A stretch of 28,192 bases of DNA from NCBI GenBank assembly GCA_028714595.1, contig JAQTMD010000001.1:1-28192 (forward strand). Reading direction: 5' to 3'. The translations under genes and the position numbers were made by a program. This stretch comes from Candidatus Omnitrophota bacterium. Its GTDB lineage: Bacteria; Omnitrophota; Gorgyraeia; Gygaellales; Profunditerraquicolaceae. The notes under the pieces were generated by a model, which saw only the letters and a program-made list of their open reading frames with translations, was not told the origin of the DNA and did no database searches. Positions 17,496 to 19,003 of the stretch are shown one piece after another; within the stretch, counting starts at the first letter, position 1, and each line of letters opens with the position of its first letter.

Positions 17496-18521
17496 TTAGA
17501 ACTGTCTTAAAAAACGCAGGTCGTTTTCGCTGAACAGGCGGATATCATGGATCCCGTACTTGAGCATGGCAATGCGTTCCACGCCCATGCCAAAGGCAAA
17601 TCCCGTATATTTTTTGGGGTCATAGCCGACGGTCCTGAATACGTTCGGGTGGATCATGCCCGAGCCCAGGACTTCAAGCCAGCCCTTCCTGCCGCAGACC
17701 GAACAGCCCTTTCCCTTACAAATAATGCAGGAGATATCCACTTCTGCGGACGGCTCGGTGAACGGGAAGAAGTGCGGCCGGAAACGCATGGCAATATCCT
17801 GGCCGAAGATCCCTTTGGCGAAGAATTCCAAGACGCCTTTGAGGTCGGAGAATGTTATGTCGGTGTCCACCATGAATCCTTCGATCTGGTGGAACATGAA
17901 CGAGTGCGAGGCATCCACGGCATCGGGGCGGTATACCCTGCCCGGCGCCACAACGGCGATCGGCGGCTTTTGCGCGCTCATCGCCCGGATCTGTACCGTC
18001 GAGGTCTGGCTGCGCAAAAGGTATTTACCCTCCGCGCCTGCCGGGCAATCGAGGTAAAAAGTATCGAATGCCTCCCGCGAGGGATGCTCCAGCGGGATAT
18101 TCAGACCCGTAAAATTCGCAAACTCGGTCTCGATCTCATTGCCGTCGACGACCTGAAAACCCATGCGCCGGAACATCCCGCAGATCTCGTCGATGACCTG
18201 GGTGACCGGATGCGCGAATCCCAGGTCCTGGGCTATGCCCGGCATGCTGAAATCGACGCTGGTGCGCCGCTGAGCGACTGCCTGCCCTGCAAGGGCCTGC
18301 TGTTTCTCGGCGAAAAGCGTGAGGATCTTGTTTTTAAGCTCATTGGCCTGCTTGCCGAACTGTCCTCGCTGATCGGGCGGCAAGGTCGGGATCTGCCCCG
18401 TCAGTTGCGCAAGGACTCCCTTTCTGCCCAGGTATTTGACCTTGAGCTCCTCGAGCGCCTGCAGAGAACCGACTGCCGCGATCTCGGAATCTAGCGTTTG
18501 TTTAATAGGCTCAATATCCAT
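17496..18521 (-). CDS. pheS: Phenylalanine--tRNA ligase alpha subunit
   Basis: YLGRKG, HPSREAFDTFY, PGRVYRPD..DASHSFMFHQIEG, FRPHFFPFTEPSAEVDI, CIICKGKGCSVC, GFAFGMGVERIAMLKYGI. Confidence 0.98.
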   Translation of the reverse strand: MDIEPIKQTLDSEIAAVGSLQALEELKVKYLGRKGVLAQLTGQIPTLPPDQRGQFGKQANELKNKILTLFAEKQQALAGQAVAQRRTSVDFSMPGIAQDLGFAHPVTQVIDEICGMFRRMGFQVVDGNEIETEFANFTGLNIPLEHPSREAFDTFYLDCPAGAEGKYLLRSQTSTVQIRAMSAQKPPIAVVAPGRVYRPDAVDASHSFMFHQIEGFMVDTDITFSDLKGVLEFFAKGIFGQDIAMRFRPHFFPFTEPSAEVDISCIICKGKGCSVCGRKGWLEVLGSGMIHPNVFRTVGYDPKKYTGFAFGMGVERIAMLKYGIHDIRLFSENDLRFLRQF

Positions 18522-19003
18522 AAAACTCCCAATGCTATTCCGAACCCAAGCGCAAGCTTGGATTTACTGACATGGGGCTCTTCTGCCAGGCGCATCCCCC
18601 GAGCGATCACCTGGAGGCCGTCTGCGTGAATATCAAGGTCTGCGCCGTGCTCAGGGCAGTGCTGGTGGAATACGCCGCTTATTGAGACGCGATCCCCTGT
18701 CTTTCTATAGCCGCCGGTTTCGGCGATCGAGCGGGCGAAATCTTTACTCATCCAGATGCCGATCGCGGTCGTACCGTCATGCACGTTGACCCAGACAAAG
18801 TCGCCCCGCTGCATCACATCGCCGATGACTTCACCTTCAAATGACACGGTTTTTCCGTCGTACTCTTTTGCTTTGCTGATAAGCTCGGAGCTCGGGACAG
18901 TCTGCGCAAAAACAAATCCCTGCAGAAAAAACATCGACAGCAGAGCGGCCGCAACCGCGACAACAATCAGTGACCGTTCATCCGTATGCTTGTGCGCCCT
19001 CAT
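18491..19003 (-). CDS. Exported OB-fold-like protein with C-terminal membrane anchor; function unknown, coupled to trkH
   Basis: Signal peptide (..FVFA|Q), YDGKTVSFEGEVIGD...VWVNVHDGTTAIGIW...GDRVSISGVF, HQHCPEHGADLDIH motif, TM LALGFGIALGVLWILSLL followed by NKR. ATGA overlap with the trkH stop. Confidence 0.75.
   Translation of the reverse strand: MRAHKHTDERSLIVVAVAAALLSMFFLQGFVFAQTVPSSELISKAKEYDGKTVSFEGEVIGDVMQRGDFVWVNVHDGTTAIGIWMSKDFARSIAETGGYRKTGDRVSISGVFHQHCPEHGADLDIHADGLQVIARGMRLAEEPHVSKSKLALGFGIALGVLWILSLLNKR

Follow-up and report, generated by a model that had tools for sequence, protein, structure and literature searches.

A probable outward-facing OB-fold partner of a TrkH potassium-transporter subfamily in Omnitrophota

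In current descriptions, the channel-like membrane subunit of Trk and Ktr systems, which are among the main routes of K+ uptake in bacteria, is gated from the cytoplasm only. To our knowledge, the Trk/Ktr systems described so far have cytoplasmic partners only, and we found no paper tying TrkH to an OB-fold, periplasmic or accessory partner. The TrkH superfamily also includes KdpA, which works together with KdpC, a periplasmically oriented single-span subunit that lies near the KdpA filter and has been proposed to raise K+ affinity, and with KdpF, a lipid-like single-span peptide; the roles of KdpC and KdpF are still debated (PMC6255902).

Here we describe the product, given the working label OBx, of an open reading frame (ORF) at 18491–19003 (−) in a 28,192-nucleotide (nt) stretch of DNA (the window) from a Candidatus Omnitrophota genome (GCA_028714595.1, contig JAQTMD010000001.1, positions 1–28,192). 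On the basis of gene linkage, co-occurrence, co-duplication and a K+-related regulatory context, we propose, with a probability of roughly 65%, that OBx is an obligate partner of a distinct subfamily of TrkH K+ transporters of about 500 amino acids (aa), and most likely belongs to the transporter physically as an accessory subunit. OBx and a small membrane peptide encoded on the other side of trkH, neither of them annotated, are probably two undescribed membrane subunits of a Trk-type system, and they mirror the still puzzling KdpC and KdpF of the Kdp pump. The OBx-linked TrkH subfamily is widespread, with more than 1000 sequence clusters and records labelled Omnitrophota, Planctomycetota and Spirochaetales, and should OBx dock on TrkH, control of a TrkH-type channel from its outer face could be put to the test here.

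Linkage of OBx to one TrkH subfamily

The OBx gene and its neighbours in the window are arranged as follows.

18491–19003 (−): OBx gene, encoding a 170-aa outward-facing OB-fold protein with a membrane anchor (ORF, 1153 homologous clusters, AlphaFold2 (AF2) pLDDT 91.8)
19000–20502 (−): trkH, of the distinct subfamily of about 500 aa (500 aa here), directly upstream of OBx; Pfam TrkH E = 2e-44
20511–20627 (−): gene for a 38-aa single-span membrane peptide with a conserved G-x-x-x-E, directly upstream of trkH
20629–21291 (−): trkA-2, encoding a half-size RCK protein; Pfam TrkA_N and TrkA_C
21294–21950 (−): trkA-1, encoding a half-size RCK protein; Pfam TrkA_N and TrkA_C
17496–18521 (−): pheS, the start of which overlaps the 3′ end of OBx by 31 nt; a flank of the cassette and not a member of it

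The ATG of this 170-aa frame overlaps the stop codon (TGA) of trkH in the tetranucleotide ATGA at 19000–19003, as an initial annotation made from the DNA alone had read it; a purine-rich AAGGGA stands a few bases upstream. At the other end, the last 31 nt of OBx overlap the pheS start at 18521, and tblastn matches to OBx and PheS likewise overlap in many Omnitrophota loci.

The initial annotation had also tied OBx to trkH, and the two checks set beforehand for that tie, on gene neighbourhood and on co-occurrence, both strongly upheld it. For the first, each fetched locus was searched with the window proteins by tblastn. In 156 of 158 testable loci, the gene directly upstream of OBx, in the same orientation, is trkH: 73 of 73 species-genome loci (those of the 80 best that had at least 700 nt of upstream sequence), 61 of 61 testable loci from a metagenome scan seeded with 10 distant, spirochaete-like OBx members, and 22 of 24 targeted picks. 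Among the 80 best species-genome loci, the order thrS–infC–rplT–trkA–trkA–(peptide)–trkH–OBx–pheS–pheT is near-universal. Because such an order could simply be inherited, other contexts of the trkH–OBx pair were examined. Genomes of 4 Mb labelled Planctomycetota or Sedimentisphaerales retain trkA–trkA–peptide–trkH–OBx without thrS or pheS nearby; OBx was found in 1 of 201 sampled genomes of the phylum Planctomycetota, and the cassette seems to have reached the genomes so labelled as a unit.

Duplicated copies provide a further context. Nine genomes of the Omnitrophota sample described below carry two OBx copies, and in eight of them the second copy follows a second trkH, distant from thrS and pheS and without trkA. 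In the TrkH tree (support 1.0) and the OBx tree (0.85) alike, these eight pairs group as a single clade, which indicates that trkH and OBx were duplicated together. In the ninth genome (G236, L093), the second OBx is a truncated remnant with stop codons upstream and no trkH nearby. Patristic distances in the TrkH and OBx trees are correlated, with r = 0.86 where 500 permutations reached 0.23 at most; shared species history contributes to the value of 0.86. Separately, in one genome whose record is labelled Actinomycetota, an intact trkH–OBx pair has pieces of a second trkH and of a frameshifted OBx immediately upstream (L062:4472-5147 and 5529-7504), which suggests a tandem duplicate of the pair in decay.

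Co-occurrence was assessed in 301 genomes across the phylum, with window-type TrkH defined at E ≤ 1e-60. OBx was matched in 80 of them, window-type TrkH in 79 and any Pfam TrkH in 174; the sampled genomes are interrelated, and these counts describe a pattern and do not amount to a statistical test. Family by family, the counts for OBx and window-type TrkH are identical (37/41 in f1, 6/15 in f8, 4/4 in f19, 7/7 in f26, 5/5 in f29 and 3/3 in f30), and the two are jointly missing from 4 of 41 f1 genomes and 9 of 15 f8 genomes. The sole difference, in family f13, stems from an 18.9-bit OBx match in genome G069 that is regarded as false; apart from it, the genomes with OBx are exactly the 79 that have window-type TrkH. 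This weak hit is also the only one among the 95 genomes with only other TrkH/KtrB types, in which OBx was not credibly found; in family f9, for example, 16 of 17 genomes have such other types and none has OBx. The matched phyletic profiles indicate that OBx tracks one TrkH subfamily and not K+ channels generally.

Another contig of the window's own genome carries a KtrB-like channel gene (G000 contig C140, L188:1381-3207; Pfam TrkH E = 1.5e-65) followed by a TrkA/KtrA-like gene and no OBx. Its product is 24% identical to the window TrkH over 414 aa, and with both channel genes in one genome the organism seems to own two K+ uptake systems of the superfamily.

Fold, topology and conserved residues of OBx

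A word-indexed search returned 35 relatives of OBx at E ≤ 1e-29, the named ones from Omnitrophota genomes, and among 1.84 billion cluster representatives, searched exhaustively with HMMER, 1153 clusters (50% identity) matched at E ≤ 1e-3 and 729 at E ≤ 1e-10, with members of 104–265 aa in the 150 clusters listed. When each species was represented by a single genome, relatives turned up in 511 stretches. These numbers are far beyond chance, and OBx is a real conserved protein. Some members are labelled Spirochaetaceae or Spirochaetales, and the commonest labels of the ESM Atlas clusters, taken unchecked, include Actinomycetota and Bacillota; taxon labels of metagenome-assembled genomes are used here as written in the records.

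No Pfam family matches OBx above threshold, and NCBIfam has no match for OBx or the 38-aa peptide. The best Pfam match is to DUF4131 (PF13567, the N-terminal OB domain of ComEC), at E = 7e-4 and 17.4 bits against a cut-off of 31.6; weak DUF4131 matches occur in 8 of the 35 members (best E = 7e-4) and reach 14.3 bits in a six-frame search, all below the gathering threshold. The OBx clusters of the ESM Atlas, annotated with Pfam 38.1, share no common family, the atlas offering as a lead only a pointer to PF26045 (OB_2TM_halo; score 0.81), and a search of PDB sequences with the OBx family profile returned nothing at E ≤ 10. In NCBI records, relatives of OBx are labelled 'DNA-binding protein', a name that is very probably wrong.

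Four features of the protein are used below.

18905–19003 (−): OBx residues 1–33, with a basic N-region, a hydrophobic core and a site, x-F-A↓Q, compatible with signal peptidase I (model helix 9–28 and conserved pattern)
18584–18901 (−): OBx residues ~35–140, five-stranded OB barrel (AF2, VIA-align and Foldseek)
18626–18658 (−): motif C116-P-E-H119-G-A-D-L-D124-I-H126, in the β4–β5 loop and the start of β5; candidate metal site
18497–18571 (−): OBx residues 145–169, C-terminal membrane helix, followed by a basic tail (NKR) (model helix and conservation)

An AF2 model of OBx built from the 35-sequence alignment (pLDDT 91.8) has a helix at 9–28, strands at 52–66, 69–75, 80–86, 105–115 and 122–134, and a second helix at 145–169. 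When the model was compared with 48,161 chains by VIA-align, OB domains came top, including the anticodon-binding domain of aspartyl-tRNA synthetase (AspRS; Z 13.4), RPA (12.4) and the N-terminal domain of MCM (12.4); YgiW (Z 10.5) and CcmE (Z 10.1) ranked lower. Foldseek agrees on the OB fold (E = 1.5e-6). Because the matches are spread over OB domains, we regard OBx as a generic OB barrel that falls in no particular known family. The conserved Cys, His and Asp residues, with Arg66, had raised a reading as a sortase-like or Cys–His–Asp hydrolase; it was dropped, the fold being a five-stranded OB and the fold lists holding only OB domains.

Among 177 relatives, the N-region is net positive in 94% and followed by a hydrophobic core in 100%, and a C-terminal hydrophobic helix is present in 97%, with a short net-positive tail after it in 98%. 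Small residues occupy the positions aligned with V31 and A33 (−3 and −1), as fits a signal peptidase I site before Q34, and position −1 is Ala, Gly or Ser in 139 of 183 sequences. The N-terminus would be either removed as a signal peptide or kept as a first membrane helix. The positive-inside rule puts both ends of OBx in the cytoplasm and turns the OB barrel outward. The signal-peptide-like start, β-rich OB-like core, C-terminal membrane anchor and outward orientation proposed in the initial annotation are thus all borne out, by conservation at both termini and by the model and its best structural matches.

The likening of OBx to the YgiW/YdeI (BOF) type fared less well. BOF proteins are likewise exported bacterial OB folds, and Escherichia coli YgiW (1NNX) superposes on OBx with Z 10.5 and a root-mean-square deviation (rmsd) of 2.2 over 84 residues. 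However, YgiW stands mid-list (Z 10.5, against 13.4 for the tRNA-synthetase OB domain) and is outscored by many unrelated OB domains, and BOF (PF04076) is absent from the Pfam matches of the window protein at E ≤ 1 and from those of the 35 members at E ≤ 0.1. BOF proteins are also soluble and are not known to have a C-terminal anchor or the C/H/D/H motif. CcmE is a periplasm-facing, membrane-anchored OB barrel with a functionally essential His, although its match to OBx (Z 10.1) is generic and CcmE (PF03100) is absent from the Pfam matches of the window protein at E ≤ 1. CcmE has an N-terminal anchor, and its haem-binding His sits in a flexible tail at the C-terminus, whereas the conserved His residues of OBx lie in the β4–β5 hairpin and its gene context is trkH, not ccm genes. 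DUF4131 resembles OBx as an OB domain set between membrane segments, with the weak matches noted above; OBx differs as a stand-alone protein of 170 aa with no competence genes nearby. The two may be distantly related.

Conservation across 183 OBx sequences marks a set of polar positions and a possible metal site. E58, G97 and G103 are invariant (183), followed by H119 and H126 (180 each), D124 (179), C116 and D104 (178), W71 (177), R66 (175), Y99 (174), D49 and D76 (170) and N73 (166). The motif had first been read with two more histidines: C-x-x-H and D-I-H stand, in 178–180 of the 183 sequences, whereas H115 is His in only 3, being usually Ala, and H113 is kept only in part (His in 97, Asn in 55). 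What remains is C-x2-H-x4-D-x-H. Exactly one Cys is present in 131 of 183 OBx domains, and a disulfide role for C116 was dropped on that ground; an unpaired, exported and near-invariant Cys more probably serves to coordinate a metal or as a reactive thiol than as one partner in a disulfide. The C116/H119/D124/H126 cluster, with its unpaired Cys in an extracytoplasmic domain, would most plausibly coordinate a metal ion, for example Zn2+, whether for structure or for regulation. The net charge of the domain averages −3.8, which makes it mildly acidic.

OBx as a putative accessory subunit, and alternatives

The partner channel has the hallmarks of a Trk subunit. The window TrkH aligns with Vibrio parahaemolyticus TrkH (3PJZ) over residues 17–490 of 500, reaching the N-terminal helices, and retains the Gly in the four filter motifs (TTG, TGG, GTG and NVG), the intramembrane loop G-G-x3-S-T-x-G-x2-K and the GRLE motif; by these residues it looks like a working K+ channel subunit. 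It scores only about 150 bits on Pfam TrkH, against 190–240 bits for most other TrkH/KtrB genes of the phylum, and its subfamily has invariant positions of its own, such as YYHS after the second filter where V. parahaemolyticus TrkH has YFDS.

19771–19782 (−): YYHS motif, TrkH residues ~241–244, just past the second filter loop

This segment should face outward, which makes it a lead for the OBx docking site, with its His as a candidate contact or extra ligand.

On the other side of trkH, 120 of 125 loci have a hydrophobic ORF of 30–60 aa with G-x-x-x-E whose end adjoins the start of trkH; the trkA-less second copies and the spirochaete-like loci are among them, and the invariant unit is therefore peptide–trkH–OBx. 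The five-gene Trk variant of the initial annotation therefore stands in part: trkA–trkA–peptide–trkH–OBx recurs in more than 100 loci, but the conserved unit is the smaller one, second copies being without trkA. The G-x-x-x-E lies within the peptide's one membrane span (examples are LGIATEIAYA, LGIFWEAVYV and GVLAEIGYA), placing a tiny peptide with a buried conserved Glu beside a K+ channel gene.

In about 30 loci, a KdpD-like kinase and a KdpE-like regulator adjoin this three-gene module. Upstream of the eight second copies are a 341-aa histidine kinase (DUF4118, HisKA and HATPase_c), whose best NCBIfam match is KdpD, and an OmpR-type regulator that best matches KdpE (L083–L087 and L089–L091; for example, L083:5983-9854); no KdpA match was found in five second-copy genomes that are 93–96% complete. 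In spirochaete-like loci, a kinase of 645–876 aa (Usp, DUF4118) and a regulator lie directly downstream of OBx (L107–L114, L118, L124, L144, L165, L169 and L185), the kinase of L185 (L185:5747-9060) being full-length, with Usp and a KdpD sensor domain. A typical kdp operon has kdpDE after kdpFABC, and the KdpDE-like genes after OBx in these loci occupy the position that is usual for kdpDE after kdpC. The repeated pairing with KdpD/KdpE-like genes in genomes that gave no KdpA match suggests that this Trk system is switched on when K+ is scarce.

Compared with described Trk systems, such as that of V. parahaemolyticus (PDB 3PJZ/4J9U), the locus shares a near full-length TrkH alignment, the four filter glycines and RCK genes upstream; it differs in the outward-facing OB protein and the short membrane peptide that always come with this subfamily, and in that TrkA is split into two half-size genes. 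Like KdpFABC, it has a peptide gene before the channel gene and a gene for an outward single-span protein after it, together with the KdpD/KdpE-like flanks of some 30 loci; unlike KdpFABC, the OBx cassette has no P-type ATPase (KdpB). The resemblance of OBx to KdpC is functional and architectural, an analogy and probably not a matter of common ancestry: KdpC (PF02669) is not among the Pfam matches of the window protein at E ≤ 1, and the fold lists, which OB domains fill, contain no KdpC.

In the arrangement that we propose, the N-terminal signal sequence would drive export of OBx and the C-terminal helix would hold it in the inner membrane, placing the OB barrel on the periplasmic face, above or next to the external opening of the TrkH pore. 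The peptide, TrkH and OBx would form a three-part membrane core, which the two half-size TrkA proteins, where present, would gate from the cytoplasm. By analogy with Kdp, OBx would play the part of KdpC and the peptide that of KdpF, as a stabiliser; OBx may stabilise the complex, raise its K+ affinity or both. A bolder form of this proposal, which we regard as possible but doubtful, is a Kdp-like core without the pump, in which an outward OB cap holding a metal through its C/H/D/H residues sets K+ affinity or selectivity at the mouth of the TrkH pore, and which would serve inducible, high-affinity K+ uptake where no Kdp was found and a KdpD/KdpE-type system adjoins. If this holds, OBx would be the first subunit known on the outer face of a Trk/Ktr channel, and the complex a present-day counterpart of KdpF–KdpA–KdpC.

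Several points weigh against OBx being such a subunit. The synteny comes largely from related Omnitrophota, and the loci are not independent. In one genome, G018, trkA–trkA–trkH lie on a different contig from OBx, which is intact and flanked by an Rnf/Nqr subunit gene on one side and archease/gyrA on the other. No fused TrkH–OBx was found among the longer forms searched (418–2000 aa), which is weak evidence. The fold and sequence matches listed for OBx include no KdpC, and OBx is anchored at its C-terminus where KdpC is anchored at its N-terminus. Finally, the geometry of the hairpin may put H126 about 10 Å or more from C116, to the detriment of the candidate metal site.

The linkage and co-occurrence data would fit equally well if OBx were a biogenesis or assembly factor that assists the insertion, folding or dimerisation of this TrkH subfamily from the periplasm without being a stoichiometric subunit, and the match to CcmE, a membrane-anchored OB chaperone, lends this idea some substance. 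Translational coupling, one-to-one pairing, co-duplication and strict co-loss are more typical of subunits, however, and the conserved polar surface residues (E58, R66, W71, N73, D76, Y99 and D104), together with the C/H/D/H cluster, suggest a specific ligand or interface more than the surface of a general chaperone; we therefore consider an assembly factor unlikely.

A role off the channel, as a separate periplasmic metal- or redox-binding sensor or buffer whose thiol/His site would report metal load or the redox state of the envelope and that is coupled to K+ uptake only physiologically, seems to us slightly less probable again. The invariant unpaired Cys with its His/Asp/His companions in an extracytoplasmic domain would suit such a protein, as would the OBx gene of G018, unlinked from trkH. 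Yet OBx without window-type TrkH was not credibly found in the 301 genomes, and the protein has no output domain and a cytoplasmic tail that averages about 9 residues, so that any signal from OBx must pass through a membrane partner. That OBx binds DNA or other nucleic acids, perhaps as a relative of the outward OB domain of ComEC, is highly improbable: the NCBI name, the nucleic-acid-binding OB domains among the best fold matches and the sub-threshold DUF4131 matches (8 of 35 members; the window protein at E = 7e-4, 17 bits against 31.6) speak for it, but the domain is exported, lies between membrane segments and is acidic on average (−3.8), its context is K+ transport in 156 of 158 loci and never competence genes, and a shared OB fold does not show function.

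TrkA genes and genomic surroundings

The trkA genes are an optional part of the cassette. Two trkA genes (TrkA_N and TrkA_C) lie upstream in the window and in most loci, and are absent beside the eight second copies. In distant Omnitrophota families (L095–L104; for example, L095:8757-9134), the first trkA matches over only about 125 residues, corresponding to the N-terminal Rossmann part, and the second is full-size, so the RCK ring may be built differently from one lineage to the next.

In the window, trkA–trkA–peptide–trkH–OBx sits between rplT and pheS, within the widely conserved thrS–infC–(rpmI)–rplT–pheS–pheT cluster (window 17496–25000 (−), loci L002–L081). The starts and stops of the cassette genes overlap or nearly abut, and the placement between rplT and pheS is retained in most of the Omnitrophota loci examined.

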